From Desulfatiglandales bacterium (GTDB lineage: Bacteria > Desulfobacterota > DSM-4660 > Desulfatiglandales > HGW-15), in assembly GCA_041685835.1 (NCBI GenBank), contig JAWLEX010000001.1, forward strand, positions 11,374 to 75,373: a stretch of DNA of 64,000 bases, in the 5' to 3' direction. Made by a program: the position numbers and the translations under genes. Shown in pieces: positions 6,101 to 38,581 of this stretch. The notes beneath the pieces were generated by a model. The model was not told where the DNA came from. It did not search any database and saw only the letters and a list, made by a program, of their open reading frames with translations. The stretch's first letter is position 1; each line of letters opens with the position of its first letter.

Positions 6101-6822
6101 GACGCCTTCTCCCAGCCGCGGGCATGGCAGTGGCCCTGCACGGCCTGTTTTTTCTGGCGGGAGATTTTCGGCCGGAGACGGCAGGGCCGTTGAATTCAAG
6201 GCACACGCGCGTGGTAACGATTCAACTCCAGGAGTTGAAACCTCCCTCAGATTCGCCGGCCCCTGAGTCTTCCGTTTCGGAACCCGAACAGCCGAATTTA
6301 AGCACCAAGAAGCCCGAGGTCGTGTTCGACTGTCCCGCACCCCGGCCTAAGGCGATACGGACGCGCACCGGGCACCCATCCCCCTTGCGCCCCCGTGCCC
6401 TGTCTTCAGGACCGGCCCCGGCTAAGAGGCCGGTGATTCGGAATGAGCAGGTGGATAGTGCCGACTCCACGCCGGGCGGCCTTTCGGACTCGGCCCCGGA
6501 GAGCCCGAAGGGTCCGCTTGACGGGAAAGCTGAAGCACCTGTTCCCCTGGTGGAGGCCGTGCCCCTTTACCGGGAAAACCCGCCGCCCCTGTACCCGGAC
6601 CTTGCACGGCGCAGGGGATACGAGGGGGTGGTGCTTCTGGAGGTCCTGGTGACCGAGGAAGGGGGTGTGAGTGAACTTCGTGTTGCCCGATCCAGCGGCC
6701 ACACCCTCCTGGACAGGGCCGCGGAGCAAGCGGTCAGGGAATGGCGCTTCGAGCCGGGACAAAGGGGGGATCGACCGGTGGCCATGAGGGTCCGCATTCC
6801 TGTGCGGTTCCGACTGCAGTAG
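6097..6822 (+). CDS. tonB: TonB-family energy transducer
   Basis: N-terminal anchor, Pro-rich linker (PSDSPAPESS...PAPRPKA) and C-terminal TonB domain YPDLARRRGYEGVVLLEVLVTEEGGV...RFEP. The GTG start overlaps the exbD stop. Confidence 0.8.
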   Translation: MRRLLPAAGMAVALHGLFFLAGDFRPETAGPLNSRHTRVVTIQLQELKPPSDSPAPESSVSEPEQPNLSTKKPEVVFDCPAPRPKAIRTRTGHPSPLRPRALSSGPAPAKRPVIRNEQVDSADSTPGGLSDSAPESPKGPLDGKAEAPVPLVEAVPLYRENPPPLYPDLARRRGYEGVVLLEVLVTEEGGVSELRVARSSGHTLLDRAAEQAVREWRFEPGQRGDRPVAMRVRIPVRFRLQ

Positions 6823-6903
6823 GAAACCGTTTCCCAGGACCCGTCACAAAAGCCGTGGTCCGTGGTTCGTGCCGGTGCCTGTGGCAGTGTCTGTGAGGCG
6901 TGT

Positions 6904-6977
6904 CGGTGTCAGTGAAAAGATCGTGTTCGTGGCTCGTGGTTCGTGGGAAAGAACCGCAGCCCCCGGGTTTTGGGTAT
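6904..6977 (-). repeat. Right copy of the 74-bp inverted repeat (partner 2951-3024)
   Basis: Its reverse complement matches 2951-3024 at 67/74 positions. It is flanked by more TTCGTG/CAGTGTCTGTG-type short-period sequence (6858-6903). Confidence 0.85.
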
Positions 6978-7004
6978 TCCCTCGGCAGCTTCAGAGCTCA
7001 AAAG

Positions 7005-7745
7005 CTATCTCTCCTGTTTTTTCCATGGCCGCACAGATCCGAACTGCTCGTCGCACCAACGTGTGCCCCGGTTCAGCCGGTCCTCGAAGAGCTTGCGATA
7101 CGACTCGAGGGTATCGGCGTTGGTTTCCGGCGGCACCAGGATGGGCTCCTCGTAAAGGATCACCACCCGGGCAAAGGGCTTGGGTACCAGATAGCGGTCC
7201 CAGGAGTTGAACTGCCAGCAGCGGTCCGCCCCCCAGAGGACAGGGATGAGAGGGACACCTGCGTTTCGTGCCATGATCACAGAGCCGATTTTGGCCACCC
7301 GGGGCGGGCCCTGGGGGCCGTCTGCAAGCATGCCGCCTATTTCCCCCTGCTGCATCCTCTGAATAATCTCTTTCAGGGCCTTTAACCCTCCCCGGCTGGA
7401 GGAGCCGCGCACATCCCGGAAACCCAGCCATCGGGCCATCCGGGCCGCGTACTCCCCGTCCCGGCTTCTGCTTATCATCGTGGTGACATGCTGCGATCCG
7501 AAGTGATGGAAGTGGTATGACATTCGCTGGTGCCAGGTGGCGTAGACCGCGCCCCCGGCCGACCTCTCGACGGCGTTCCGGGCACGTTCAAACCCCTCGA
7601 TCCTGATTACCCGGCAGGAAAGCATGAGGAGCTTGATAAGAATGGCCGCGATCGGGGGCAGCACCCGGAGGAGCACGGGGTCGTACCATCGAAGGCTGGG
7701 GGAGGTGTCACGGGGCAATTCTTTCTCCTTGATAAAAGGTCTCAC
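7005..7745 (-). CDS. DUF374 / lysophospholipid acyltransferase-like protein
   Basis: The sequence ...YATWHQRM...ISRSRDGEYAARMARWLGFRDVRGSSSRGG...GMLADGPQGPPRVAKIGSVIMARNAGVPLIP matches my recollection of the DUF374 family. Confidence 0.65.
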   Translation of the reverse strand: MRPFIKEKELPRDTSPSLRWYDPVLLRVLPPIAAILIKLLMLSCRVIRIEGFERARNAVERSAGGAVYATWHQRMSYHFHHFGSQHVTTMISRSRDGEYAARMARWLGFRDVRGSSSRGGLKALKEIIQRMQQGEIGGMLADGPQGPPRVAKIGSVIMARNAGVPLIPVLWGADRCWQFNSWDRYLVPKPFARVVILYEEPILVPPETNADTLESYRKLFEDRLNRGTRWCDEQFGSVRPWKKQER

Positions 7746-7860
7746 GGCGTGGAGGATCCCCGGCCGAAAGTCAAAGGAAGCCTACCCTACATTTGTGCGT
7801 GATGGCAAGTGCCTGGGTCTCCGCATGATAATCGGTTTTCCCGCAAAGCAGTGCCCGCAT

Positions 7861-7931
7861 TGAATTCGATTTCGATTTGGATACAAAGAATCCCAGGGTG
7901 ATGCACCGGACGCTCATCCTTCGCGCTGGTG
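7861..7931 (+). repeat. Composite repeat: short CGATTT hexamer run plus a 24-nt box GGACGCTCATCCTTCGCGCTGGTG
   Basis: The box at 7908-7931 matches 19779-19802 at 21/24 positions. Both boxes are preceded by CGATTTCGAT-type hexamers. Confidence 0.75.
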
Positions 7932-8041
7932 ATTCTAGATTATAGAAGGCTGTCTCTTGTGTGTCGCCTTCCTTTGGACTATCGTATGGAGTAGATGGAG
8001 GAGAAACCAGCAGCCGGGCGGAAGGGGGCTTTTTAGGAGGC

Positions 8042-8869
8042 ATGGAAGAGATGCGGGTGGCGGCCGTGTGCATGCGCTCGAGGCCGGGCGCGATCGAGGA
8101 GAACCTGGAGAGGATGGAGGCCCTTGCAGGCCGGGCAGCCGAAGCGGGCGCGGAGATCCTTTGCTTTCCCGAGTTTTCCGTTACCGGGTATGTGCTGAAG
8201 GATCCGCAAGGGGTCTACTCGGGATTGACTTATGACGCCGTCCTGGATCGGTTGATCCGCATGGCCCGGGAATACGGTATAGTGGTGCTTGCCGGGGTCA
8301 TCGAACCGTCCCGGGACGGGCGGCCCGCCATAGGCCAGGTCGTGGCCGGCCCGGAAGGGATCATGGGCGTTCACCGGAAGACCCACCTTTCCCCACCGGA
8401 AAAGGCGGCATTTCGACCGGGAAATCGTATGCCGGTCTTTCGTTGGAAGGAGAAGGTGTTCGGCATTCAACTCTGCTATGAGAGCCATTTCCCCGAGATC
8501 AGCACCATGATGGCCCTGAACGGCGCGGACATCCTCTTCATGCCTCATGCATCACCCAGGGGTACGCCCGAAGAGAAGCTGGAGAGCTGGCTGCGTCACC
8601 TGACCGGGCGCGCATTTGACAACGCCCTGTTCATTGTCGCCTGCAATGCAGTGGGCGAGAGCCCGGGGGGCTTTCCTTTTCCCGGAGTCATCGTCTTTCT
8701 GGGCCCTGACGGCCGGGTGGTCAAACAACACCTTGGAGAGAGTGAGCATCTCCTCCCCGCGACCCTGGATTTTTCGTTTCTGAAAGGGATCAGGCGTCAC
8801 CGGATGAAGTACTTCCTGCCTTATCGCCGCCCGGATATTTACGGCCCGTTGAGCGACTCATCCAGTTAG
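8042..8869 (+). CDS. Carbon-nitrogen hydrolase (nitrilase superfamily) protein
   Basis: Glu-Lys-Cys triad contexts: CFPEFSVTGY, HRKTHL, GIQLCYESHFPE. AGGAGG sits directly upstream of ATG 8042; the ORF track begins at 7961. Confidence 0.8.
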   Translation: MEEMRVAAVCMRSRPGAIEENLERMEALAGRAAEAGAEILCFPEFSVTGYVLKDPQGVYSGLTYDAVLDRLIRMAREYGIVVLAGVIEPSRDGRPAIGQVVAGPEGIMGVHRKTHLSPPEKAAFRPGNRMPVFRWKEKVFGIQLCYESHFPEISTMMALNGADILFMPHASPRGTPEEKLESWLRHLTGRAFDNALFIVACNAVGESPGGFPFPGVIVFLGPDGRVVKQHLGESEHLLPATLDFSFLKGIRRHRMKYFLPYRRPDIYGPLSDSSS

Positions 8870-9034: not shown

Positions 9035-9352
9035 CTAGACGCAGCCGGTCGGCTTCGGGAGTCCCGCCATTTTGCAGGCGCCCTTGCCCGGGCCGGAGGG
9101 GAACAGCTCGTAGATGTACTTCAGCTTGAATCCGGTCACCTTTGAGAGGATCCTTACCATGGGAGCGATGCCGTTCTTCTTGTAATAGTCCTGTAGGACA
9201 TTGAGCACTTTCCAGTGCTCGTCGGTGAGCTCCTCGATGCCTTCTTCCTTTTTCACGTGCTGGACCCAGGATTCGTTCCAATTGTTGAAATCGTCAATGA
9301 AGCCGTCTTCGTCCACATTAAAGGTATTTCCTTGAAATTCAATTGTCGGCAT
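9035..9352 (-). CDS. dsrC: Dissimilatory sulfite reductase gamma subunit / sulfur carrier DsrC
   Basis: 105 aa, MPTIEFQGNTFNVDEDGFI..., with a C-terminal arm ...GKGACKMAGLPKPTGCV carrying both conserved Cys (penultimate Cys and the Cys 10 residues upstream). GAGGAGG ribosome-binding site precedes ATG 9352. Confidence 0.9.
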   Translation of the reverse strand: MPTIEFQGNTFNVDEDGFIDDFNNWNESWVQHVKKEEGIEELTDEHWKVLNVLQDYYKKNGIAPMVRILSKVTGFKLKYIYELFPSGPGKGACKMAGLPKPTGCV

Positions 9353-9466: not shown

Positions 9467-10885
9467 TCAAGAAATTTTACTCCTGCAGATTTCACGGTAT
9501 TCAGATGCTTTTCGAACAAAGCCTCCGGCCCACGAGGCGGTCCCCAATGCGTGGATGTGAGTATACAGGGCCAGGAGGTTTTTCCGGCTCAGGCCGTCCG
9601 ATTCGCCGTTGAGCCCGCGTCCTCGTTCCACCCTGAAGACCGGCCGGACGTCCTTTGTGGACCGGAAAACCGGCCTTGAGTAGTGAAACTCGTGTCCCCT
9701 GAGGACCGTGCCCTGCTCATAAAACGGGTTGTCTCCGGTCACTTCGAGGATGGTGTACCCGTGTCCCTGGGGTTTTCGCTCGAGCACGAAATCCACCGGC
9801 AGGGCCCCTACCATGGGGTGGGGCTCGCCGTTTACCACGAGGTTTTCCCCCAGATACATGAGGCCGCCGCATTCGGCATAGACCGGGAGGTCGGCCTCGA
9901 TCCTCTCCCGCAGGTCCGCCCGGAAGGTCTGGTTGGCCGTGAGCAGTTCTACCTGGGTCTCTGGAAACCCCCCCCCGATATAGAGCCCGTCCAGTTCGGG
10001 AAGCCGCGGGCTGTTAATTGCACTGATTTCAACAAGTTCAGCTCCCTCATTCTGCAAGGCCGAGAGGTTTTCCGGGTAGTAGAACCAGAAGGCGCTGTCC
10101 AGGAGGAAGCCGATTCGAGGTCCTGGTCCGGATGGAGGCGCCGGGGTCTCCGTGCCTTCGGGTGATTCCGGAAGAGGCCCGTCAACAGGGGGGGCATTGC
10201 AGGCCAGTGCCCACAGGGCGTCCAGATTCAGGCTCTCCCGAACCACCCGGCATGCCCAGGACACCGCTTCCTCGGCCCGGGAGCGCTCCTGGCGGGGGAT
10301 GAGTCCCATGTGACGTTCGGGAAAGTGGTTTTCCCGAAGCTTGCGTACGGAGCCGAGCACAGGCACTCCACAGTAGTGCTCCACGGCGCTTCGAACCACG
10401 GACTCCTGCCTGGGTCCGCCGACTCGGTTGAGGATGACCCCGCACAGGTCCAGCCCGGGGTCGAAAACTCGACACCCCATGACCACGGCTGCAATGGTCC
10501 TGGTGGTCATGGTTACGTCCACGATCAAAATCACGGGGCACCGAAGGCTCCGGGCCAGTTCAGCCGAGCTGTAGCGGCCCTCCAGGTCCAGGCCGTCGAA
10601 CAGCCCGCGGTTACCTTCGATGAGGGCCACGTCGGCCTGACGGGTATACCGCATGAAGGAATTCAGGATCTGGGTCTCGTTCATCATGAAAGGATCGAGG
10701 TTGTGGCAGGGCCTGCCGGCGGAAAGGGACAGCCAGCCCGGATCGATGAAGTCCGGCCCTTTCTTGAAAGGAGCCACCCGTTTCCCTTCCCCGGTCCACG
10801 CGGCGGTCAGGCCCAGGGAGAGAAAGGTCTTTCCCGATCCGCCTCTCAAGGCGGCAACCATCATTCGGGGTGGGGAGAAAGTCAT
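9467..10885 (-). CDS. dsrN: Cobyrinic acid a,c-diamide synthase family protein; by context DsrN (sirohaem amidase)
   Basis: P-loop ALRGGSGKTFLSLGL and a C-terminal glutamine amidotransferase motif YAECGGLMYLG. It lies between dsrC and the divergent dsrABD. Start chosen at MTFSPPRMM (10885); the ORF track begins at 10984. Confidence 0.75.
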   Translation of the reverse strand: MTFSPPRMMVAALRGGSGKTFLSLGLTAAWTGEGKRVAPFKKGPDFIDPGWLSLSAGRPCHNLDPFMMNETQILNSFMRYTRQADVALIEGNRGLFDGLDLEGRYSSAELARSLRCPVILIVDVTMTTRTIAAVVMGCRVFDPGLDLCGVILNRVGGPRQESVVRSAVEHYCGVPVLGSVRKLRENHFPERHMGLIPRQERSRAEEAVSWACRVVRESLNLDALWALACNAPPVDGPLPESPEGTETPAPPSGPGPRIGFLLDSAFWFYYPENLSALQNEGAELVEISAINSPRLPELDGLYIGGGFPETQVELLTANQTFRADLRERIEADLPVYAECGGLMYLGENLVVNGEPHPMVGALPVDFVLERKPQGHGYTILEVTGDNPFYEQGTVLRGHEFHYSRPVFRSTKDVRPVFRVERGRGLNGESDGLSRKNLLALYTHIHALGTASWAGGFVRKASEYREICRSKIS

Positions 10886-11198
10886 AGGATGTGTTCCGGT
10901 TTCCCGCCTGTGGCGGATTCCGTCCCCTGCTTTCCGGCCTTGGCGGTGCTGTAATCTTACGTCTTGTTTATTCGGGCCGTCCACGGCCGGGAAAGGAGGC
11001 GCTTTTTCAACCTGGAGGGCGGTTCCACATGATGTCGAGAGGAACGTCCTTTAAGGCGGTCGCAGGACAATGGCCGTTGATTCGGAACGGTTGCCCCTTG
11101 AGGCGGCCCCTTGGCTGCGGTGATAGAATCTTCGGGCGGGATTGTCAATCAAATATGGAAAATCCCAAGGATCTTCTCAACGCAGCTGCTGATTTTTA

Positions 11199-11450: not shown

Positions 11451-12869
11451 ATGGAGTTTGAACCAAGAGAAGAACAAAAGAAACTAAAATACAGCGAGCT
11501 TCGAATTTACAGTGATGAGGAGCTGAACAATTACACAGAAGAAGAACTCAAGAACTTCAAGGTCAAGCACAATATCCCGGACCTGGAAGATCTGGAAAAG
11601 GGTCCTTGGCCGAGCTTCGTGGCCGATGCAAAGCGGGAGGCCCTGCACAGGAAAAATCTGCCTGCCGACCGCATGATGGTCGCTTCAGAAGCCGTGGAAG
11701 ATGTGCTGGGTCAGCTCCAGGTCTCCTTTGACAACGGGGAAACCCACTGGAAGCACGGCGGCATCGTGGGGGTGTTCGGATACGGCGGCGGCGTGATCGG
11801 CCGATACTCCGACATGCCCGAAGCGTTCCCGGCCGTGGCTCACTTCCACACCATGCGCGTGAACCAGCCCGCGAGCAAGTTCTATACGTCCGACTATCTC
11901 CGGTCCATCTGCGACCTGTGGGAGTACCGAGGCAGCGGCTTGATGAACTTCCACGGCTCCACCGGCGACATCATTTTCCTGGGGACCTCCACCGAACAGC
12001 TCGAGCCCATCTTCTACGAACTGGGCCATGTGCTTCAGCAGGACCTTGGTGGTTCCGGATCCAACCTGCGCACGCCTTCCTGCTGCGTCGGCAAGGCCCG
12101 TTGTGAGTGGTCCTGCATCGATACCCAGGCCCTGTGCTACGAGCTGACCCACTATTACCAGGACGAGCTTCACAGGCCGGCGTTCCCCTATAAGTTCAAG
12201 TTCAAGTTCGACGGCTGCCCCAACGGTTGCGTGGCCTCGATCGCCCGGGCCGACATGTCCTTCATCGGTACCTGGAAGGACGATATCCGGATCGACCAGG
12301 AGGCCGTCAAGGCTTACATGGGCGGCGATATCGTGCCCAACGGCGGGGCCCACGCGGGAAGAGACTGGGGCGAGTTCGACATTCAGAAAGAGGTCATCGA
12401 CCTCTGTCCCACGAAGTGCATGTGGCTGGAAGGTGACACGCTCAAGATCGATAACAAGGAGTGCATCAGGTGTATGCACTGCATCAATACTATGCCCCAG
12501 GCCCTGCGGCCCGGTGAGGATACCGGTGTAAGCCTGCTTTTCGGCGCCAAGGCACCGATCCTCGAGGGCGCCCAGATGTCCGTGCTCACCATTCCCTTCA
12601 TGAAGGCGGAGCACCCCTACGACAACATCAAGGAAGTGATCGAAAAGGTCTGGGACTGGTGGATGGAAGAAGGTAAAAACCGGGAACGCTTGGGCGAGCT
12701 CATTCAGCGCTACGGCATCCCCAAGTTCCTCGAGGTACTGGAATTGCCGCCCATGCCTCAGATGGTCACCGCGCCGCGGGCCAACCCCTACATTTTCTGG
12801 AAAGAGGAAGATGTCCCCGGCGGTTGGGAGCGAGACATCAACGACTACCGATCCAGGCATAAGAGATAG
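11451..12869 (+). CDS. dsrA: Dissimilatory sulfite reductase alpha subunit
   Basis: Motifs GPWPSFV, THWKHGGIVGVFGYGGGVIGRY, CPNGCVASIAR and the ferredoxin domain CPTKCM...CIRCMHCINTMP. GGAGG lies 8 nt upstream of the ATG, and an in-frame TAA sits at 11433. Confidence 0.95.
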   Translation: MEFEPREEQKKLKYSELRIYSDEELNNYTEEELKNFKVKHNIPDLEDLEKGPWPSFVADAKREALHRKNLPADRMMVASEAVEDVLGQLQVSFDNGETHWKHGGIVGVFGYGGGVIGRYSDMPEAFPAVAHFHTMRVNQPASKFYTSDYLRSICDLWEYRGSGLMNFHGSTGDIIFLGTSTEQLEPIFYELGHVLQQDLGGSGSNLRTPSCCVGKARCEWSCIDTQALCYELTHYYQDELHRPAFPYKFKFKFDGCPNGCVASIARADMSFIGTWKDDIRIDQEAVKAYMGGDIVPNGGAHAGRDWGEFDIQKEVIDLCPTKCMWLEGDTLKIDNKECIRCMHCINTMPQALRPGEDTGVSLLFGAKAPILEGAQMSVLTIPFMKAEHPYDNIKEVIEKVWDWWMEEGKNRERLGELIQRYGIPKFLEVLELPPMPQMVTAPRANPYIFWKEEDVPGGWERDINDYRSRHKR

Positions 12870-12881
12870 GAGGGAAAGGAT

Positions 12882-14069
12882 ATGGCATTATCTCAGGAAA
12901 GACTCGGACTTTTCAATCCCGATAAACCCATGGAGAACCGGCTCACGGACCTCGGTCCGCGGCATTTCTGGCAGAACTTCCCTCCCATTATTCAGAATAA
13001 CTACGGCAAGTGGAAGTACCATGAGATCCTGGAACCGGGTGTTCTCGTTCACGTCTCCGAGACCGGCGACAAGCTGTTTACCGTGCGAGTGGGCGGCTGC
13101 CGGTTCATGTCTGCGGAGCACGTTCGCGAGCTCTGTGAAATCGCGGACAAATTCTGTGACGGATATGTCCGCTTCACCACGCGGAACAACATAGAATTCA
13201 TGGTGGACACCCAGGACAAGATGGAGGCCCTGAAAAAAGATCTCCAGGGCCGCAAGCATGTCTCCGGCAGCTACAAGTTCCCCCTCGGCGGGACCGGTGC
13301 CGGCCTGACGAACATAGTTCACACCCAGGGGTACCTGCACTGCCACACCCCGGCCACGGACGCTTCCTCCATGGTAAAGGCCGTGCTGGACGATCTCTTT
13401 GAGTATTTCCAGGGCATGACCTTTCCGGCCCAGGTGCGTATCTCCATGGCATGCTGCCTGAACATGTGCGGTGCCGTGCACTGCTCCGATATCGCCCTGC
13501 TCGGGTACCACCGCAAACCACCGGTGATCGACCATGAGGTCATGGACTCGCTCTGTGAGATTCCTCTGGTCATCGCGGCCTGCCCCACGGGCGCCATCTC
13601 GCCGGCCAAGACGGAAGACGGCAAGAAGACCGTGAAGATAAAGAACGAACGCTGCATGTTCTGCGGCAACTGTTACACCATGTGCATGGCCGTTCCGCTC
13701 TCTGACAAGGAAGGCGACGGCGTGACCATCCTGGCCGGCGGCAAGATCTCCAACCGGATCAGCCCGCCGATGTTCTCCAAGGTCGTGGTGCCCTGGCTGC
13801 CCAACAACTTTCCTCGGTATCCTGAGGTCTGTGCGGACGTCAAGAAGATCATCGAGGCCTACGCGGCCGATGCCAACAAGTACGAGCGGATCGGGGACTG
13901 GGCCGAGCGTATTGGTTGGGAGAGATTTTTCGAGAAGTGCGACCTGCCGTTCACCGAGCACCTCATCGACGACTACCGGCTCCAGTACGACACCTACCGG
14001 ACCTCCACGCACTTTAAGTACACGGAAGCGGCCTGGGCGGTGTCCAGGGCGGCCGGAGGAATCGAGTAG
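12882..14069 (+). CDS. dsrB: Dissimilatory sulfite reductase beta subunit
   Basis: Motifs [32 protein letters not shown]...[11 protein letters not shown]. It starts 12 nt after dsrA behind a GGAGGGAAAGG ribosome-binding site. Confidence 0.95.
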
Positions 14070-14108: not shown

Positions 14109-14339
14109 ATGGAAGACATCAAAAAGGCCATCATGGACTTTGCCGAGGGCAGTAAAAAGACAAAGTTTTATTTCAGCGACTTGGAAAAGGCCGTGAAAAA
14201 AGTCAAACCCGACACCAAAGCCAGGGAAGTCAAGAAGGCTGCAACGGCTTTGATCAACGAGGAGAAGTTGATCTACTTCTCCACGGGAAGCAGCACCATG
14301 TACGGCATGAAGGGGCGGGGGCAGACAGAGGATCACTAG
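14109..14339 (+). CDS. dsrD: DsrD
   Basis: 76 aa, Lys-rich, with KFYFSDLEKA and YFSTGSSTMYGMKG. It lies directly downstream of dsrB as in the classical dsrABD arrangement. Confidence 0.85.
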   Translation: MEDIKKAIMDFAEGSKKTKFYFSDLEKAVKKVKPDTKAREVKKAATALINEEKLIYFSTGSSTMYGMKGRGQTEDH

Positions 14340-14410: not shown

Positions 14411-14573
14411 CGTATGCATACATCGGACAAAGACACAACGATCTCGCAAAACGCGGTATTTTCCGAAACACGTCGAGAACGCGTTCGCTCCTGGTATTCT
14501 CTGGGTCGTGACAGGAGGATAAACGGGTTTTGCGAAATCGACGGGAAGACCGCGTAAGTCGAAAGTGGAGAGC

Positions 14574-15209
14574 ATGATGAAGACACCCCAGGGCGCAGAG
14601 GAGTTTATTGCCGAGCAGAAGCAGAACCTGACGGAAAACCCCGAGTGCGCCAACTCAAGCTACAACATGGGCGTAGCGCTCATGGAGCAGGGAAGGCTGG
14701 ATGAGGCGATAGGCGCTTTTAACGACGCCATCAGCAACAGTGCTCGAATGTTCGAGGGATACGTCAATCTGGGATATATCTACTTCCAGAAGGGTGATCT
14801 GGAGCACGTGGTGTTCGCCAACAAGAAGGCCGTCGAGATCGAATCGCGTTATGCGCGCGGGTACGCGAATCTGGGTTTCGCCTACCTCCAGATGCAGCAG
14901 ACGGATGCGGCGATCGAGGCCCTGGAGCAGGCCATTGAGCTGAACCCGAAGATCGTCCAGGCTTGGGCCAACCTTATCAACGCCTACCTCCAGAAAGAGG
15001 ATGTGGACAAGGCCGTTGAAACGGGCGAGAAACTGACGGCCTTTGCCCCCGACTTTGGTCTGGGGCGCAACAACCTGGCATTTGCCTATTACTGTCGGGA
15101 CGAGTACCAAAAGGCGATCGAGCACGTGGATCAAGCCGTTTCCCTGGGGTTTGAGGTCCATCCCGAGTTTTTGAAAAGGCTGGAACCGTACCGCCGGGCC
15201 TCATTTTAG
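14574..15209 (+). CDS. Tetratricopeptide (TPR) repeat protein
   Basis: About five consecutive 34-aa TPR units, for example YNMGVALMEQGRLDEAIGAFNDAI and ANLGFAYLQMQQTDAAIEALEQAIELNP. Codon usage is host-like with C-ending codons. Confidence 0.75.
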   Translation: MMKTPQGAEEFIAEQKQNLTENPECANSSYNMGVALMEQGRLDEAIGAFNDAISNSARMFEGYVNLGYIYFQKGDLEHVVFANKKAVEIESRYARGYANLGFAYLQMQQTDAAIEALEQAIELNPKIVQAWANLINAYLQKEDVDKAVETGEKLTAFAPDFGLGRNNLAFAYYCRDEYQKAIEHVDQAVSLGFEVHPEFLKRLEPYRRASF

Positions 15210-15384
15210 ACGATCCCTGCAGCGGCTGTGACGGCACCAATTCCCACCAATTGCCTTGACAATGGGATTCAGCTCATAGTAGAGAAACGGACGGTATACG
15301 GGGTTTTCCGCTCCCCTACTCGGGGGCCCCGGTTTCGGCCCGGGGAAGGTACGAGTGGACTCACAATGGAAAGGAGATCCATCC

Positions 15385-15711
15385 ATGGCAGATTGTTTGA
15401 TCAACGTGTTCCTCAGCGATGACGACCAGAAAAAATTGGACGAGGCGGGACTGGGCGAGCAAGTCCTCGAGGTGGAGGGAAAGAAGGCGGTTCAGGTCCC
15501 CATGAGCAAAAAGGACCAGAAGAAACTGGTCAAGGGGTTCCCGGACCTGACGTTCGATGAGGCGAATGCCTGTGCGCTCCCGGACGAGGCCCAGAAGCAA
15601 CTGCTGGATATCGTCCTGGATCTCAAGACCCTGGACGTGATGAAGTTCGCTATCACCAAGCTGTACAACCCGCTTGCGGGAAAGGCGATTCGAAGCAAGA
15701 CCTTCGGGTAG
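15385..15711 (+). CDS. Hypothetical protein (108 aa)
   Basis: AAGGAG lies upstream of ATG 15385 and third positions are host-like and C-rich. I recognise no motif. Confidence 0.55.
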   Translation: MADCLINVFLSDDDQKKLDEAGLGEQVLEVEGKKAVQVPMSKKDQKKLVKGFPDLTFDEANACALPDEAQKQLLDIVLDLKTLDVMKFAITKLYNPLAGKAIRSKTFG

Positions 15712-15870
15712 ACCGTACTGGGCCCGCTTTTGATCATGCACCCCCGATTTCCTGCACCGTTGTGCGGCCACCTCTAGAGTATGGACTCTGTGGCCGCATG
15801 GGTTGACAGCCTCTTTTGCTGTTTTCGCCTCCAGATGCGGGGAAACGGCGTTTTAAAGTCAGGAAAGATC

Positions 15871-16521
15871 ATGGGGGTCGACGCGCTTTTTCGTTCCTAC
15901 GAGCAGCTCATGGCCCGGGCCGACGCCGTTTTCGAGCAAATGGCCCTGGATTACCCCGACGCCGTCCAATGTCAAAGGCACTGCGATGACTGTTGCCATG
16001 CCGTGTTCGGTCTGTTTCTGGTGGAGGCGGCATATCTTCAGCAGCAGTTCGCACGCCTGTCCAGCTCCGAGAAGGCTGAAACCGTTCTCCGTTGCGGCCG
16101 TGCGGATCGGGAACTTGCCCGTCTTCAGCAACAGCTTCGTGAACAGGAAGGAAAAGGGCCCGTGGAAGGGGACCCCCTTGCACTGGGGAGGGTCCGTTGC
16201 CCGCTCCTGAATGAGGAGCGGGATTGCGTTCTCTACGCCCAGAGGCCCATTACCTGCCGAATATACGGGGTCCCAACAAAAATTAAGGGCAAGGCCAGGG
16301 TATGCGGGCTATCCGGGTTCGATTCTGGCACCTCCTACCCGACCTTTGATCTTGACGGTGTGTTTCGGGACCTCTACGACATGTCCCGGGAACTCGTCCT
16401 GGACGCGGAGGGGGAAGATCCGGACAGGGCCGGGCTCCTCATCTCCGTGTCCAAGGTCCTCACCACTCCCCTTGAAAGTCTTATCCACGAACCCTTGGAA
16501 GGACCCGGTGAAGGGCGGTGA
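15871..16521 (+). CDS. YkgJ-family (CxxCxxCC) cysteine-cluster protein
   Basis: The motif CQRHCDDCCHAVFGL plus the downstream cysteines CPLL...C and RPITCRIYGVP matches the UPF0153/YkgJ pattern. AGGAAAG precedes ATG 15871; 15781 is an alternative start. Confidence 0.6.
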   Translation: MGVDALFRSYEQLMARADAVFEQMALDYPDAVQCQRHCDDCCHAVFGLFLVEAAYLQQQFARLSSSEKAETVLRCGRADRELARLQQQLREQEGKGPVEGDPLALGRVRCPLLNEERDCVLYAQRPITCRIYGVPTKIKGKARVCGLSGFDSGTSYPTFDLDGVFRDLYDMSRELVLDAEGEDPDRAGLLISVSKVLTTPLESLIHEPLEGPGEGR

Positions 16522-17632
16522 CGTGATCGTCGAGACGACTCTCGATCAGAGCCCGCTCTAAGACGGCTTCCTCCGCCAGGAACCCAAGTACGGGCCCGTG
16601 GAGGGTAAGCAGATCCTTTGTGGAGAAGGAGCATAAGAGATCAAGCACCTTGGTGTTTTCCTCCAAGACGGGGCCCCCTGACAGCCGGCGCTGAGCCAGG
16701 CCGGCGAAAAACCCTTCAACCGCCGCCTCGAGGGCATCATCTCCGGCCCACAGGGCCTTGCCCACCCCCTCCTTCCTGTCCAGCCTCATGCGAAGGACCG
16801 TATCCAGGAAGAAGTAGGCAAGGGCCACGGCCGGCATGGTTCCGTCGGCCGGTGACAGGCCCGGAAGTGGCGTGTAGGCCCGGGCTGTGGTGAGCCGGAC
16901 GTCCAGTTCGTTGTTCCGCGGCCGGACAACGAAGTCCCCGGCCGCGTGATGCCAGGCCCGCACCTGCATGAATCCGTCGGGATCGTAATATCGGCTGAGG
17001 ATTCGGGTCGCTCCCCGGAACAGGGACCGGCTTTCCCCTTCGGTGGCCCATCGGTAGCCTCGGGCCTGATCCCAGATCTCCACCCTGGGCCGCCCGCCGG
17101 GCTTTACCGCATTTAAGTGCCACTCGTGAAAGCCCTCAAACCAGTCGGCCAGGAGCACGAGGGCGGATATCTCGCGGTTTCCGGACCCGAAAGCCGCTTT
17201 GCCGAATAAGACCGGAACGGGCAGGTGAGGCAGACCGAACCGCCGGTGGAGTTCCTTGAGCGTCTCGACCTCCCTGGTGAGCCAGTTCCGGGCTTGTTCG
17301 GAGAAAGCCGTGCTCGAACACAGCTTGATCTGGTCCAGGCCCGCCTGAATCTCTATGCTTGCCACGTGATACATTGCGCCGTGCTTTTCAGTGCGGATCA
17401 GCAGGGACCCGAGCTTCTCCGGAGGGATTTCATGACGGACCTTGTCGCCCAGAATGCGGGAAAGCATTCGGCCCCCGTCCGCAAGGAGGAAGTCCCGCAG
17501 CCCGTTCAGATAATCTCCAAGGCTCAAGAAAGGGTGGGATTCGTCCAGAGAGAGCCGGAAAGGCGCGGAAAGGTGATCCGGGCCCAGTGGAATGTCGCCG
17601 TTGGGAGATGATGCGAGGTAGGTCACTTCCAA
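16481..17632 (-). CDS. Hypothetical protein (383 aa), last gene of a tightly packed minus-strand operon
   Basis: It lies 5 nt after the upstream gene and has host-like codon usage. No family could be assigned by eye. Confidence 0.6.
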   Translation of the reverse strand: MEVTYLASSPNGDIPLGPDHLSAPFRLSLDESHPFLSLGDYLNGLRDFLLADGGRMLSRILGDKVRHEIPPEKLGSLLIRTEKHGAMYHVASIEIQAGLDQIKLCSSTAFSEQARNWLTREVETLKELHRRFGLPHLPVPVLFGKAAFGSGNREISALVLLADWFEGFHEWHLNAVKPGGRPRVEIWDQARGYRWATEGESRSLFRGATRILSRYYDPDGFMQVRAWHHAAGDFVVRPRNNELDVRLTTARAYTPLPGLSPADGTMPAVALAYFFLDTVLRMRLDRKEGVGKALWAGDDALEAAVEGFFAGLAQRRLSGGPVLEENTKVLDLLCSFSTKDLLTLHGPVLGFLAEEAVLERALIESRLDDHVTALHRVLPRVRG

Positions 17633-17637
17633 GGTGG

Positions 17638-18744
17638 TTACATCCGCTCCAGGGCCTCGCCGGCAAGCCGACCGACGGTTACGGAATGGACGTTGCCATC
17701 GTAATAGATTTGGACCTGGTTCGCGTCATCAAGGAGCGCTTCCAGGTCTTCACTCATTTCGCGTGCGCCCAGGTGACCGAGAAGCCGGGCGGTCTGACCC
17801 CGTACCGCCGGGTCCGGGTCTTTCAGGAAAGGCTGGAAATGAAAGGAGTGTTTTCGAAGAAGGTCAGGCCGGTGGCCGGCAACCGTGGCAATGGCCTCGA
17901 TGGTTGCGGCACGCTTGCTCTCGTCGCCGAGAAAAGGGTAGAGGTGGGGCAGGTATCCTGCGTAGAACTCAGGTTTGTGGCGGATGATCTCCCCGATGGC
18001 CTCGAAAGCCCCCCAGCTCGAGGCCGCCGTGTCTGTAACGGCATATAAAAGTCCCTGAAGAAGCTTGGACACTGAGGCCGGGCTGGTTTCACCGACTACC
18101 TCACTCACTCGTCCCATGGCCTCTGCGGCCCGGCGTCGAAGCGTGTCGTCGCCCGAATAAAGCAGCCGCTGAATCCTGCGGAGGAGCTTGCGGTCGGTGG
18201 AAGCAGCGTCCACAAGCGGTTTTATGTTCCATTCCTGAACGCAGGTTTCAACATCGCGTTTTGTCAGGGAGTGTGTCTTGGCAGCGCGGGCTCCGGGAGG
18301 GTCGGGAGCCGAAGGTGTGACTGCGGCCCTCTCGAGACGCTTCCGGACCCCTTCGGCGGTGACCTCCAGGACATCGTCGTGGAGTCTTACGAATACCAGC
18401 ACCCCGGCGATACGCCGGCTCTCGAAGTACCCGCCTGGCACGATGAGATGGTTCTGGAAGTCATAGGTTTCCACGATCTCCAGGCGGTAGTCTTCATCGG
18501 GAAGGAGGCTCCAGGCCAGGTCCCAGTCCATATCGCAGCCGAAGACGAGGGCCTCGATCTGGGCCGAGCCCACGTTCCGGCCGCTTTCGTCACAGGAATA
18601 AACCGCACCGCAGGCGCAGGAGCCCACGGGCATTTCGCCCTGCCTTCGTGTGGTCAGATCCCGGGGCTTGTCCACGATCATCCCGCAGAAGGGGCAGGTC
18701 GGGCGCTTGATGGAATCCCGGCCGTAAAAAACGCGGTCCAGCAT
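17638..18744 (-). CDS. Zinc-ribbon plus HEAT-repeat protein (368 aa)
   Basis: N-terminal CPFCG...(21 aa)...CACG four-Cys motif. C-terminal HEAT/PBS-lyase-like repeats, for example DPDPAVRGQTARLLGHLG and DDTLRRRAAEAMGRV. Confidence 0.6.
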   Translation of the reverse strand: MLDRVFYGRDSIKRPTCPFCGMIVDKPRDLTTRRQGEMPVGSCACGAVYSCDESGRNVGSAQIEALVFGCDMDWDLAWSLLPDEDYRLEIVETYDFQNHLIVPGGYFESRRIAGVLVFVRLHDDVLEVTAEGVRKRLERAAVTPSAPDPPGARAAKTHSLTKRDVETCVQEWNIKPLVDAASTDRKLLRRIQRLLYSGDDTLRRRAAEAMGRVSEVVGETSPASVSKLLQGLLYAVTDTAASSWGAFEAIGEIIRHKPEFYAGYLPHLYPFLGDESKRAATIEAIATVAGHRPDLLRKHSFHFQPFLKDPDPAVRGQTARLLGHLGAREMSEDLEALLDDANQVQIYYDGNVHSVTVGRLAGEALERM

Positions 18745-18758
18745 AGATCTCCTCCCTT

Positions 18759-19016
18759 TCAGAGATCCAGGTCGAGCCCGTCACCGTCCTGGTCGTACTC
18801 GTAGTCGATGATTTCGAAATCATTCCCAATGGATCTGAAGCGGAGAATCCAGCCGGCATACGCCGGGCCGGCGAACTCGCAGCTCAGTGTACCGGTGCGT
18901 GCATGGCGCCGCCTCAGCTTCGGTGTGATCTTTTCATCGAAGACATCACGGATGACGGCCAGGTCGTCTTCATCGAGCTCGAGTTTCCGGGTGGGTGTAT
19001 CGTCGGTTGTGCTCAT
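18759..19016 (-). CDS. Hypothetical small acidic protein (85 aa)
   Basis: Host-like codon usage. It lies 14 nt upstream of the next gene and has acidic termini (DEDDLAVI..., ...YEYDQDGDGLDLDL). Confidence 0.5.
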   Translation of the reverse strand: MSTTDDTPTRKLELDEDDLAVIRDVFDEKITPKLRRRHARTGTLSCEFAGPAYAGWILRFRSIGNDFEIIDYEYDQDGDGLDLDL

Positions 19017-19124
19017 GGGATAATCGGATTCAGATTGTAGGATTACAGGGTAATCCCACCGCCCGAACGGAAAAACGCAACCAACCGTAGGCGGATGCGT
19101 TTGACGAGGGTGTGTAGCGCAAAT

Positions 19125-19370
19125 TCAGCGGCTGTGTCCGGGAAGCTCGAGCGTGGTGCATGAGTTGCCGGGTCCGCACGACTTGGTGTCCAGTCTGGCC
19201 TGCTTTTCCCCGGACGCGATTCCTACTGTGTGGTTAGTGACGCTCACCACCCTTTCAACGGTAGTGGCTTTGCAGTCCGGGCAGGCGAGTTCCACCTGGT
19301 CATCAGAAGTCTTGAAGATCATTTCAAAGACCCGGCCGCACCCGGCGCAACGGAATTCGTAAATAGGCAT
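19125..19370 (-). CDS. FmdB-family zinc-ribbon protein
   Basis: MPIYEFRCAGCG...CPDCK, the classic FmdB/CxxC-CxxC N-terminus. GGAGG ribosome-binding site precedes ATG 19370. Confidence 0.75.
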   Translation of the reverse strand: MPIYEFRCAGCGRVFEMIFKTSDDQVELACPDCKATTVERVVSVTNHTVGIASGEKQARLDTKSCGPGNSCTTLELPGHSR

Positions 19371-19602
19371 GCGTTTCCTCCCTATAAGGGGCCCGTTCGC
19401 TTGTGATATTCTTCCCATGCACTATAATGCCAAAGGGGGATGAAGTCAAACGGCAAAAACACCGTGACTCGTGTCTCGTGGTTCGTGCTGCGTGACCATA
19501 GCCGACACCTTGATATATTGAGCAGGCAGGGTTCACTACTTTAGTGCCTTACCCCTGAAAAGCTGTCAGAAAAAACAAGAAGTGTTGATGTTGAGATAAT
19601 CC

Positions 19603-19644
19603 AAATCGAAATCGGGATCGGGATCGGGATCGGGATCGCAATCG
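19603..19644 (+). repeat. Hexamer array (NNATCG) x7
   Basis: AAATCG AAATCG GGATCG GGATCG GGATCG GGATCG CAATCG. Confidence 0.9.
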
Positions 19645-19959: not shown

Positions 19960-20811
19960 ATGATCCTCTCCTTCCATCCGTGCATAACGGCTGACCGCCA
20001 GGTCATCCTGGGGTCTCGATCCCCCGGTCTGCACGAAGCGAAGCTGGCGGCACGCGCAGACGCCGTCTTGCTGCCCCAGACCTGCCGGGAATCCCTGTAC
20101 AGGCTTTGCAGGGATGGCGGTGCCAAGATTTTTCCATCGTATGATCTGCGATTTGCCTATCCCGGGAAAAGCGGTCAGGCCCAGCTGTTTTCGGAGCGGG
20201 GACTTCCACATCCGGACACCAGGATCTGGTCTTCGGTCGCAGTGCTTCGGGATGCTGTCCGTGTTTCAGAAGATCTTCCTCTTAAGCCGCCTTTTCTAGT
20301 AAAGACCGATACGGACCATGAAGGACTCGGCATTTATGTGATTCGCAGCCTCCACGACCTGGAGTCCGCGCTGGCCGATCTGGGGAGGCGCAGGGGCGAG
20401 TACGGCGAAAAGATTCTCACGCAGGAGCTGGTTCCCGTCGAGGGAAACGTTCTCCGCGCGGTCATCCTGGCTCGCAGGGTGCTTACATACTGGAAGCGGT
20501 CCCGGGGTGCCTTCATCACTACTATCGGGAAGGGAGCGATGGTCGATATCTCATGGAGGAAGGATCTTCAGGAAAAAGGGAGACGCCTGGCCGGTGAAAT
20601 ATGCAAGGCCCTCGGCATCAATCTGGCAGCCGTAGACATGGTGTTCAACATGCAGGAACCGGAACCCGAGCCCTTGGTCCTGGAGATCAACTACATGTTC
20701 GGTCGGCGGGGGCTGGGCGGGAGTGAGGTGTATTACCGGCTCTTGTTCGAGGCGGTCAAGGAGTGGCTCGAGGAAAACGGGCTGGATTCGAAGGGCATCG
20801 GACTTGTGTAA
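19960..20811 (+). CDS. ATP-grasp domain protein (RimK/glutathione-synthetase-like fold)
   Basis: Motifs FLVKTDTDHEGLGIYV, ILTQELV and AAVDMVF...PLVLEINYMFG resemble the ATP-grasp Lys-, Glu- and Mg-binding regions. Confidence 0.65.
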   Translation: MILSFHPCITADRQVILGSRSPGLHEAKLAARADAVLLPQTCRESLYRLCRDGGAKIFPSYDLRFAYPGKSGQAQLFSERGLPHPDTRIWSSVAVLRDAVRVSEDLPLKPPFLVKTDTDHEGLGIYVIRSLHDLESALADLGRRRGEYGEKILTQELVPVEGNVLRAVILARRVLTYWKRSRGAFITTIGKGAMVDISWRKDLQEKGRRLAGEICKALGINLAAVDMVFNMQEPEPEPLVLEINYMFGRRGLGGSEVYYRLLFEAVKEWLEENGLDSKGIGLV

Positions 20812-36751: not shown

Positions 36752-37498
36752 ATGAATACGAAAGGGGAAGGCCTGGAACCCGGGTCCGGAACAGCCGCCG
36801 CAGTGATCCCAGCCGCCGGAGCCGGGATCCGTATGGGAGCGGACCGACCCAAGCAGTTCCTGTATCTCGGCGGGAAATCCATGCTTGCCGTCACACTTGG
36901 GGCCTTCGAACGATGTGCGGCGATCCGGACCGTGGTCCTGGTCGTACCCGCCGGGGAGCTGGAGCACTGTGAACGGGAGGTTGTCCGCGGGCAGGGCCTG
37001 ACCAAGGTCCGGCATATCGTTCCGGGGGGAGCGCGTCGCCAGGATTCAGTCCGGCGCGGCCTGGAGGCATGCCCTCCGGACTGCGATATCGTGGTCGTCC
37101 ATGACGGGGTCCGCCCGCTGGTGCGCCCCGGTTTGATCGAGCATATCGTGGCCGAGGCTCGAGAGCACGGGGCGGCGATTGCGGCCCTGCCGGCCAGGGA
37201 GACGGTCAAGGAGGTCCTGGGCGGGGGCTGGGTCGGACGGACACTGGACCGCCGGAAGCTCTGGATGATACAGACGCCCCAGGCGTTTCGCCTTTCAGTG
37301 CTTCTCGAGGTCCATAAAAGGGCCGCTGAACAAGGCTGGGAGGAGATGTCCGATGACGCCCTTATGCTGGAAAGATCCGGCATTCCGGTGCGGGTGGTCG
37401 AGGGGGCTGAGGACAACATCAAGGTCACCACACAAAACGACCTCGAGGTGGCCCGGTTTCTCCTGGAAGGACGAAGGGGCGAAGATTCCGCTTTGTGA
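36752..37498 (+). CDS. ispD: 2-C-methyl-D-erythritol 4-phosphate cytidylyltransferase
   Basis: Motifs AVIPAAGAGIRMG..PKQF and VHDGVRP. Confidence 0.9.
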   Translation: MNTKGEGLEPGSGTAAAVIPAAGAGIRMGADRPKQFLYLGGKSMLAVTLGAFERCAAIRTVVLVVPAGELEHCEREVVRGQGLTKVRHIVPGGARRQDSVRRGLEACPPDCDIVVVHDGVRPLVRPGLIEHIVAEAREHGAAIAALPARETVKEVLGGGWVGRTLDRRKLWMIQTPQAFRLSVLLEVHKRAAEQGWEEMSDDALMLERSGIPVRVVEGAEDNIKVTTQNDLEVARFLLEGRRGEDSAL

Positions 37499-37518
37499 AC
37501 TCAGCCCGGGCCTTGAAG

Positions 37519-38463
37519 ATGAGCATGATTATACGAATCGGCACGAGAGGAAGCAGGCTGGCCCTGGCCCAGAGCGAGTGGGTGCGGGAGCGCGTGGAGA
37601 AACGCCATGCCGGCGTGAAGGTTGAACTGGTCCGCATCAAGACCCGGGGCGACAAGATCCTGGACTCGCCCCTCAGCCTGGTGGGCGGCAAGGGGTTGTT
37701 CGTCAAGGAAATAGAGGAGGCCTTGATAAGGGAGGAGGTGGACGCGGCTGTACACAGCATGAAGGATGTCCCCACCGAACTTCCTCAAGGTCTGGGACTG
37801 CGTGTTTTTCCGGAGCGGGAAGACCCGAGGGACGTGCTGGTTTCGGTTCGGGGTGAGCTGTTCGACAGCTTGCCAAGGGAGGCCAGGGTAGGGACGAGCA
37901 GCCTGAGGCGCGGAGCCCAGATCCTGCACCGTCGCCCGGACTTGAAGGTGTGTTCCATCCGCGGTAACGTGGAAACAAGACTAAAAAAACTTGAAACAGG
38001 AGAGGTCGAAGCGGTCGTGCTTGCGGCGGCCGGGATGCGTCGACTGGGGCTGGAAGGAAAAGTCACCCAGTTTCTCTCTATTTCCCATTTGCTGCCGGCC
38101 ATGGGACAGGGGGCATTGGGTGTGGAGATGAGGCTGGACGACGAAAAGACATGGGACACCTTTCGTTTTCTCAACCACGAGACCACCGAAATTCGTGTCA
38201 GGGCAGAGCGCGCCCTTCTGGAGACGCTGGAGGGCGGGTGTCAGGTCCCCATCGCCGGTCACGCGGTCTTGGAAGGCGATATGCTGGCATTGAGGGGCCT
38301 TGTGGCGGAACTTGACGGAAGCGTCCTCATCGCCGATGAAGCGACTGGAGACCCGGCCCGGCCCGAAGAACTCGGCCGCCGGTTGGCCCGAATGCTCCTC
38401 GATGCCGGGGCGCGGGATATCCTTCGGAGGTTGTACGGCGGCGTCGAGGGGACTACGCAGTAA
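37519..38463 (+). CDS. hemC: Hydroxymethylbilane synthase (porphobilinogen deaminase)
   Basis: Motifs IRIGTRGSRLALAQ, RGNVETRLKKL and LEGGCQVPI. The ORF track starts at GTG 37495. Confidence 0.9.
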   Translation: MSMIIRIGTRGSRLALAQSEWVRERVEKRHAGVKVELVRIKTRGDKILDSPLSLVGGKGLFVKEIEEALIREEVDAAVHSMKDVPTELPQGLGLRVFPEREDPRDVLVSVRGELFDSLPREARVGTSSLRRGAQILHRRPDLKVCSIRGNVETRLKKLETGEVEAVVLAAAGMRRLGLEGKVTQFLSISHLLPAMGQGALGVEMRLDDEKTWDTFRFLNHETTEIRVRAERALLETLEGGCQVPIAGHAVLEGDMLALRGLVAELDGSVLIADEATGDPARPEELGRRLARMLLDAGARDILRRLYGGVEGTTQ

Positions 38464-38504
38464 TACCAAAATGAGCCTTGCCGCCGGCCGCCGAAAAAGT
38501 CTTT

Positions 38505-38577
38505 TGTCTCTTGCCAAGACACCAAGGCGCAGGAAAACCTTTTAATTTATTTGCCTTTGCGACTTTGCGGGATAAAT
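38505..38577 (+). repeat. GCAAAG/CCAAGG-type intergenic repeat copy
   Basis: CCAAGACACCAAGGCGCAGGAAAACC...TTTGCCTTTGCGACTTTGCGG, directly upstream of cobA-hemD. See 31975-32050. Confidence 0.7.
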
Positions 38578-38581
38578 CACT

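Follow-up and report, generated by a model that had tools for sequence, protein, structure and literature searches.

A set of genes that we judge to be an undescribed, widely distributed companion of the reductive dsrABD genes lies beside them in a 64,000-nucleotide stretch of DNA from a Desulfatiglandales bacterium (GenBank assembly GCA_041685835.1, contig JAWLEX010000001.1, positions 11,374 to 75,373 of the forward strand), which as a whole we call the window. Four of its members are co-oriented open reading frames (ORFs) on the minus strand that form a real operon, probably co-transcribed; we label them A, B, C and D (table 1). Gene D recurs near dsr genes in three phyla, and that this link is not due to chance is strongly supported. 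A sequence-only reading of the window had suggested that the operon encodes an undescribed assembly, regulatory or scaffold module for the sulfite reductase system, and had thought mere adjacency equally possible. That parity is not borne out, since the linkage survives rearrangement across phyla. Of the suggestion itself the link to dsr stands, and the kind of role stays at the level of a proposal.

Why should such a companion matter? A large part of the carbon turned over without oxygen depends on dissimilatory sulfite reductase, and to our knowledge the maturation of DsrAB and the control of its activity are still largely open questions. D, a TPR protein encoded downstream of dsrD, C and the small cysteine-bearing proteins of the set are concrete candidates for the missing Dsr accessory functions, and the set could add marker genes for reductive Dsr loci in metagenomes. 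The literature on dsr synteny and repertoire yielded no description of the A–D genes: recent papers list dsrABCDNT-MKJOP only, and one published locus-tag table places several unnamed genes, with no comment on them, in the dsrB–dsrN interval of a Nitrospirae genome.

Linkage of gene D to dsr genes across genomes

How regularly does D keep company with dsr? Relatives of D were sought in one genome for each GTDB species, and at least 585 species genomes were positive; the best 80 of these were fetched and joined by loci reached via protein look-ups, and homologues of the window's genes were located by tblastn. The set held 83 loci at the counting stage, two of them duplicates, and 82 distinct loci entered the count of distances to dsr. 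Conservation of the neighbourhood, proposed in the sequence-only reading as a check, came out in favour of linkage. dsrA, dsrB or dsrD lay within the fetched flank in 66 of the 82 distinct loci; among the 30 loci whose sequence extends 6 kb or more to each side of D, 25 had one of these genes nearby. The median D-to-dsrD distance was 1.5 kb. The linkage was seen in many lineages of Desulfobacterota, in Nitrospirota and in the Firmicute Desulfotomaculum copahuensis.

It is also kept across at least five gene orders. In order (i), the window type, D-C-B-A converges on dsrABD-TPR-CxxCxxCC, the last being a cysteine-cluster gene. In order (ii), the SEEP-SRB2 type, D-TPR-C on one strand faces CxxCxxCC-dsrDBA. 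D is divergent from dsrA in order (iii) (loci L066, L040, L042 and L069); in order (iv) (L079, L070, L052 and L060) it converges directly on dsrD, and neither a TPR nor a CxxCxxCC gene is matched. In order (v) (L084–L087) the genes for TPR, D, dsrA, dsrB, dsrD and dsrN follow one another co-directionally, with DUF6955 or CxxCxxCC a few kb off. The Nitrospirota hold C and D within a single dsr supercluster, with an A homologue immediately upstream of dsrN-dsrC-dsrT-dsrMKJO.

Order (v) is of the Desulfovibrio type. Its DsrA proteins are 437–439 aa long, and the N-terminus of DsrA in L087 (MAKHKTPLLDQLESGPWPSFVSD...) presumably corresponds to that of Desulfovibrio vulgaris. D of L087 is 33% identical to D of the window (E 3e-54) and keeps the signature residues. 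In D. vulgaris Hildenborough the two genes that precede dsrA, DVU0400 and DVU0401, may be the orthologues of the TPR gene and of D. DVU0401, a putative member of the D family, is listed as an uncharacterised or hypothetical protein in two proteomic tables. If D and TPR genes precede dsrA in Desulfovibrio, as L087-type loci suggest, the set becomes testable in a tractable model organism.

Which genes make up the conserved unit? Homologues of C were found in 67 of the 83 loci, TPR and CxxCxxCC genes in 64 each, A in 52, B in 45 and the ATP-grasp gene that neighbours A in 33. In 56 loci C is the gene immediately before D, and in 22 of these no gap separates the matched stretches; the TPR gene of L085 shares 1 nt with D. 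The TPR protein is the best-conserved partner: its identity to Nitrospirota and Firmicutes copies is 60–69%, against 35–41% for D and 35–54% for C, and it is 42% identical over its full length to the copy in L087, whose gene immediately precedes D and dsrA. The TPR protein may itself be associated with Dsr. Desulfovibrio-type loci lack C, B and A, so the operon of four genes does not form one indivisible Dsr unit. We conclude that D and the TPR protein make up the evolutionary core, often with the CxxCxxCC and DUF6955 genes, and that particular lineages, mainly non-Desulfovibrio ones, have added C, B, A and the ATP-grasp gene. The sequence-only reading, which had treated A-B-C-D as the unit, was thus right about the operon and not about the unit of evolution.

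The predicted fold of D and the other three proteins

What kind of protein is D? The earlier reading could assign it to no family, and neither can we: D has no match in Pfam or NCBIfam, and its 47 aligned homologues likewise have none in Pfam at E ≤ 10. The family is a closed one, a profile search of 1.84 billion representatives collecting 861 clusters at E ≤ 1e-3, of which 587 stand at E ≤ 1e-30. The AlphaFold model of D is of good quality by its own measures (predicted local distance difference test, pLDDT, 90.6; predicted template-modelling score, pTM, 0.89). All 50 of the PDB matches listed for it by Foldseek are kinases or kinase-like proteins, one a pseudokinase domain; they include GAK, AAK1, RIPK2, PknB and N-acetylhexosamine kinase (NahK), with a best E of 1e-4, probabilities up to 1.0 and template-modelling (TM) scores of 0.3–0.46. 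We hold with moderate confidence, on the strength of the model, that D has a protein-kinase-like two-lobe fold.

The family has its own set of fixed residues. In an alignment of 253 members K83, G85, E170, H172, G232, D233, R251, D285, G289 and G307 are 100% invariant, and W164, W187, W227, R283 and H370 are 98–99% conserved. Within the signature motif WHHAAGDF, G232 and D233 reach 100% and W227 and F234 reach 99%. If the motifs are mapped on kinase elements by the order of secondary structures in the model, which is a mapping by order and not by superposition, WHHAAGDF would sit at the position of the catalytic loop, K83/G85 at the turn between β1 and β2, where the glycine-rich loop is found, and T-A-R251 at the DFG position after β8. 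The mean pairwise distance within the family is 0.57, compared with 0.16 for DsrB. Because D diverges so fast and yet holds a fixed polar set, a ligand-binding or catalytic pocket fits it better than a dead scaffold does.

Several observations count against calling D kinase-like. The call comes from a predicted structure with modest TM scores and has no sequence-level support: none of 48 members matched any kinase family of Pfam at E ≤ 10, a PDB profile search was empty, and hhalign gave a probability of 0.1 against APH(3')-IIIa and PknB. Of the canonical residues, neither the β3 Lys nor the Asp of HRD/HxD or of DFG is conserved as such; the invariant Lys (K83) is at the β1–β2 turn and not in β3, there is no Asp at the T-A-R251 position, and the αC Glu (E121) is not conserved across the family. 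As judged from sequence and motifs, D fails every test for any known kinase family. The structural check named by the earlier reading places D by fold only and C among HEAT/ARM-type solenoids.

C consists of two dissimilar halves. The sequence-only reading had described a CPFCG...CACG four-Cys ribbon followed by HEAT-like repeats and had called the protein uncharacterised. Both the motifs, CPFCG...CACG and DPDPAVRGQTARLLGHLG, and the repeats are present, the latter matching HEAT_EZ (41.1 bits, cut-off 27), HEAT_2 (34.5 bits, cut-off 27.7) and HEAT in Pfam. The ribbon, though present, belongs to a larger, highly conserved N-terminal domain in which alignments show six conserved Cys (C17, C20, C43, C45, C51 and C70) out of seven in the protein. 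Most 10-residue blocks of residues 10–141 are modelled at pLDDT 70–92, and residues 1–141 have no sequence or structural relative, all Pfam, Foldseek and PDB matches being confined to the HEAT half. A disordered linker (residues 142–156, pLDDT < 50) leads to the solenoid, where the model has helices across residues 162–335 and where Foldseek and PDB profile matches are to alphaRep, importin, AP-complex/adaptin, and HEAT and ARM repeats; the closest structures include peptide-binding repeat proteins.

C is uncharacterised in function, as the reading had it, but not without a family. Its residues 165–365 match positions 2–212 of the 213 in NF045662, the ‘DVU0298 family’ (158.5 bits, cut-off 75, 1.7e-46), and NCBI names a protein identical to C ‘DVU0298 family protein’. 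This is a named, uncharacterised family, of which C is a member with an extra domain. In the literature ‘DVU0298’ was met once, labelled as a CO-dehydrogenase gene locus, apparently in error. Beside A-B-C-D in D. copahuensis (L001 7368–8018), about 380 bp upstream of A and on the opposite strand, is the gene for a stand-alone 216-aa HEAT protein that may be DVU0298-like.

That A is an FmdB zinc ribbon, as the reading had supposed, is confirmed by matches above the cut-offs of both Zn_ribbon_8 (PF09723; 55.2 bits, cut-off 34.4, 7e-15) and TIGR02605 FmdB (58.8 bits, cut-off 31.3, 4e-16). Its N-terminal ribbon is CxxC-x17-CxxC, and the protein contains six Cys. The C-terminal tail is conserved as K-S-C-G-x2-N-x-C-x-T-L-[DE]-[LIV]-P-G-[PH]-x-[KR] in 53 homologues from Desulfobacterota, Nitrospirota and Desulfotomaculum. 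The longest ORF found mechanically for A reaches 19418. All homologues, though, begin at MPI[YF]EF, the sequence GGGAGG stands upstream of the ATG at 19370, and a promoter-like site lies at 19449–19421; together these support the start at 19370 that the reading had chosen. B is acidic, as that reading had said (pI 4.36). Its homologues share a core, ..AR.G.L.C.FAG..Y..W..F..FEYD, which includes an invariant Cys, C46, and the protein has no relative in Pfam or PDB.

The RNA of the A–B spacer folds at −34.4 kcal/mol (z = −2.55 against shuffles), and its hairpins may attenuate read-through into B-C-D and could raise the expression of A above that of B, C and D. The gap from A to the ATP-grasp gene is 590 bp long, is low in GC (about 48%) and holds two tandem repeats, (CGTGACT) × 4.9 at 19463–19496, just upstream of the promoter-like site, and a perfect (ATCGGG) × 4.7 at 19605–19644. 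These may be binding sites of a regulator or mere slippage-prone repeats.

The locus and its neighbouring genes

The ORF list agrees with the earlier reading on the positions of the four genes and on the spacing calculated from their coordinates, 108 nt for A–B, 14 for B–C and 5 for C–D. The same reading took them for real, resident genes with host-like codons. GC content at third codon positions is 0.71–0.74 in C and D, within the 0.66–0.80 of their neighbours from dsrC through the ATP-grasp gene, and D and C are identical to proteins of one Thermodesulfobacteriota metagenome-assembled genome. Because homologues of all four are conserved in other genomes, A–D are real genes. From left to right the locus reads dsrC-dsrN (minus strand), dsrA-dsrB-dsrD-TPR-DUF6955-CxxCxxCC (plus), D-C-B-A (minus) and the ATP-grasp gene (plus). 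Thus dsrN/dsrC is divergent from dsrABD, D-C-B-A converges on the end of CxxCxxCC, and the ATP-grasp gene diverges from A. From the end of dsrD (14339) to the end of D is 2.1 kb, and dsrC and dsrN are in the locus, much as the reading had put it (within 2.2 kb).

Nor do the four proteins resemble the named Dsr proteins, again in agreement with that reading: A–D had no match to the Pfam/NCBIfam models of DsrC, DsrD, DsrN, DsrT, DsrMKJOP, DsrEFH or DsrL at E ≤ 0.1, a comparison that left out DsrS and DsrR of sulfur oxidisers. Rfam returned no credible riboswitch or small RNA for the region. A defence-system reading was considered and rejected; PADLOC gives only generic HEAT/TPR repeat similarity (best OloA, 1.2e-07, on the HEAT part), and no PADLOC model matched A, B, D or the ATP-grasp protein.

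Table 1. Coordinates of the genes and other features of the dsr-linked locus, in positions of the window.
Feature	Position	Strand	Remarks
dsrC	9035–9352, stop codon included	−	tblastn with DsrC of L002: 85% identity at 9038–9352
dsrN-like CbiA amidase gene	9467–10984	−	ORF; dsrN synteny in 43 loci
dsrA	11451–12869	+	ORF; NIR_SIR Pfam family on orthologues in related loci
dsrB	12882–14069	+	ORF; NIR_SIR Pfam family on orthologues in related loci
dsrD	14109–14339	+	ORF; DsrD Pfam family on orthologues in related loci
TPR protein	14565–15209	+	214 aa; downstream of dsrD
DUF6955 small acidic protein	15355–15711	+	PF22271, 9e-21
CxxCxxCC (YkgJ-like) cysteine-cluster protein	15781–16521	+	PF03692, 26.5 bits (cut-off 23); 11 Cys
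D/CxxCxxCC convergent 3' overlap	16481–16521	both	41 bp
Gene D	16481–17632	−	383 aa; TTG start; orphan family, predicted protein-kinase-like fold
WHHAAGDF, residues 227–234 of D	16931–16954	−	signature motif; translation checked
Gene C	17638–18744	−	368 aa; six-Cys N-terminal domain and HEAT solenoid
C HEAT solenoid, residues 162–368	17638–18261	−	DVU0298-family domain
C N-terminal domain, residues 1–141	18322–18744	−	zinc-ribbon-like; from alignments
Gene B	18759–19016	−	85-aa acidic protein
A–B spacer	19017–19124	−	terminator-like hairpin and U-run, then a second, 10-bp hairpin
Gene A	19125–19370	−	81 aa; FmdB-type zinc ribbon (CxxC...CxxC)
C-terminal tail of A, KSCGPGNSCTTLELPGHSR	19128–19184	−	conserved; coordinates checked by translation
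Promoter-like site TTGACT-17-TATAGT	19421–19449	−	about 50 nt upstream of A; 10 of 12 consensus positions; consensus match only
RimK-like ATP-grasp gene	19960–20811	+	divergent from A; Pfam RimK 29.4 bits (cut-off 21)

The 3' ends of D and CxxCxxCC overlap in 46 of 50 loci (L002 and L003 among them), by 41 bp in 15 loci, which is the mode, and by 23 bp in nine; the pair of transcription units thus amounts to a single packed block, and at their junction no intrinsic terminator was predicted. DUF6955 recurs near dsrAB in rearranged loci at 54–62% identity (for example L084 10905–11237 and L086 4330–4662). The ATP-grasp protein falls far below the NCBIfam cut-offs for rimK_fam (39 against 143.4), MptN (30.1 against 350) and LysX (20.1 against 275.6), and its gene is divergent from A in 29 of the 38 canonical loci with sufficient flank. 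In the Nitrospirota locus L003 the gene directly upstream of the A-type ribbon (6533–8578) encodes a B12-binding radical-SAM protein with TPR repeats, which takes the position of the Desulfobacterota ATP-grasp gene, and the ribbon gene overlaps the start of dsrN.

Three contigs, labelled ‘archaeon’, ‘Promethearchaeota archaeon’ and ‘Pseudomonadota bacterium’ (L014, L040 and L042), carry D beside Desulfobacterota-like dsrAB with 60–65% identity to the window; they are probably mis-binned. Elsewhere in the window, to judge by the N-terminal sequences, 37495–40138 may encode hemC and a uroporphyrinogen-III methyltransferase/synthase fusion; if these identities hold, genes of the tetrapyrrole/siroheme branch lie about 20 kb from the dsr locus.

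Proposed role, rival explanations and known systems

What might the gene set do? We propose, from sequence and with the chances about even, that it specifies a cytoplasmic accessory complex acting on the sulfite reductase system, in maturation or in activity control. The complex would be soluble and would not be a new redox enzyme, and the A-B-C-D operon would make up half of a conserved set of genes that accompanies dsr. D would be the working part, with its kinase-like fold and a polar pocket formed by K83, E170, H172, D233, R251, R283 and D285; to judge by the model, its ligand is probably a nucleotide or some other anion, and its chemistry would be unlike that of a canonical kinase. D is encoded beside a putative helical-repeat adaptor: in window-type loci the HEAT protein C, whose gene immediately precedes D and is often start/stop-coupled to it, and in Desulfovibrio-type loci the TPR protein. 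HEAT, ARM and TPR solenoids typically bind extended peptides, and three stretches are candidates for this: the conserved tail of A, the acidic end of B and the C-terminal arm of DsrC. The solenoids could thus dock D onto a client, be it DsrAB, DsrC, DsrD or the Cys/Thr tail of A, with B, A, the CxxCxxCC protein and the ATP-grasp ligase as lineage-specific partners. The net effect would be post-translational maturation, by cofactor insertion or DsrAB assembly, or control of activity. That a complex forms, that D binds a ligand, which client it serves and which way the effect runs are all inferred.

A bolder version, which we regard as rather unlikely, is that D, docked by its adaptor, covalently modifies a Dsr component (for example by phosphorylation or nucleotidylation), the target being the arm of DsrC, DsrD, DsrAB or the tail of A. 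If true, this would be the first post-translational switch, or the first dedicated maturation step, known in dissimilatory sulfite reduction; if, besides, Desulfovibrio-type loci are representative, modification by D would operate in most sulfate-reducing lineages.

Could the block instead have some general function, such as protein quality control or an ATP-grasp-centred modification, and merely have been inherited and transferred together near dsr? A number of loci speak for this and weigh against a tie to Dsr. Five of the 30 loci with full flanks lie away from dsr; L045, L047 and L050 carry the A-B-C-D and ATP-grasp block alone, with no dsr within 10 kb, and L076 and L078 carry D alone, groEL adjoining it in the latter. 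The lack of C, B and A in Desulfovibrio-type loci counts against the accessory complex. DsrA and DsrB of D. copahuensis are 82% identical to those of the window, which suggests lateral acquisition of the whole block from Desulfobacterota. The distance matrices of D and DsrB also correlate weakly (Spearman 0.28), and the correlations with DsrB are modest for C (0.59) and TPR (0.65), but since D is near saturation this mirror-tree test is uninformative. Passive linkage would not, however, survive repeated reshuffling, yet in three phyla and no fewer than five gene orders D keeps within about 1–4 kb of dsrABD, and the closed D family occurs almost wholly in dsr-carrying contexts among the sampled loci; we think hitch-hiking unlikely. 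Another reading, likewise improbable, takes the cysteine-rich proteins for a sulfur relay or a Zn or Fe-S donor to DsrC or DsrAB and D for a non-catalytic pseudokinase scaffold. The Cys are certainly there (six in A, six conserved among the seven of C, the invariant C46 of B and 11 in the CxxCxxCC protein), and D is without the canonical kinase motifs. Yet no protein matched the TusA, DsrE, rhodanese or Fe-S scaffold families in Pfam/NCBIfam, the CxxC pairs fit structural zinc ribbons, and the ten invariant polar and glycine residues of D resemble a working pocket more than a dead scaffold.

Might the set rather control dsr expression, the zinc ribbon of A and possibly that of C binding nucleic acid while D senses a metabolite? 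FmdB was originally described as a putative regulator; A is promoter-proximal and followed by a terminator-like hairpin, and the shared upstream region contains repeats of seven and of six nucleotides. Pfam and NCBIfam, on the other hand, gave no helix-turn-helix or other DNA-binding domain in A–D, HEAT and TPR solenoids are protein-binding modules, and what is conserved in the tail of A is a peptide motif, so that regulation of this kind seems quite improbable. We give very little credence to the idea that the Ser/Thr/Cys tail of A is modified, for the benefit of the Dsr system, by D and the ATP-grasp ligase (in Nitrospirota, by the B12 radical-SAM enzyme). It would account for the conserved S-C...C-x-T-L-D tail, for the ATP-grasp gene so often diverging from A and for the radical-SAM gene that precedes the A homologue in L003. 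The idea comes purely from gene positions, though: domains for recognition, lyase or cyclase activity of the type found with ribosomally synthesised and post-translationally modified peptides were absent by Pfam/NCBIfam, and A is missing from Desulfovibrio-type loci that retain D. An accessory complex acting on sulfite reductase remains the reading that we prefer.

How does this complex compare with known systems? D matches the protein-kinase-like superfamily in its predicted two-lobe fold and in the order of its elements, and differs from it by its own invariant set, a 73-residue N-terminal extension and a β insertion after the hinge. Atypical kinase-fold proteins include the SCYL1 pseudokinase with its HEAT repeats, the UbiB/Coq8 ATPase, the SelO AMPylase and the SidJ glutamylase. 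These are kinase folds with altered motifs that have solenoid adaptors or take part in the assembly of cofactors or complexes, and they offer leads for D by analogy, not family assignments. A has the N-terminal ribbon of FmdB/Zn_ribbon_8 proteins, whose tails are mostly of low complexity; its sub-group differs by the conserved C-terminal tail and the dsr-linked position. In the LysW/LysX and RimK systems an ATP-grasp ligase extends the acidic C-terminus of a small zinc-ribbon or ribosomal protein. The present locus likewise encodes a small zinc-ribbon protein, A, beside a RimK/LysX-like ATP-grasp gene, but A has a non-acidic tail with K or R as its last residue, and the C-terminus of B is variable. 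NF045662, the HEAT-repeat family of sulfate reducers, matches the C-terminal half of C over the whole of the model and lacks the extra six-Cys domain of about 140 residues. A parallel in circumstance is DsrD, which is encoded after dsrAB, was long of unknown function and was shown in 2022 to be an allosteric activator of DsrAB (PMC8794893). Like A–D as we read them, DsrD is a non-redox protein tightly and widely linked to reductive dsrAB; it is unlike them in sequence and size, and its effect on DsrAB is demonstrated, whereas that of A–D is proposed from sequence.

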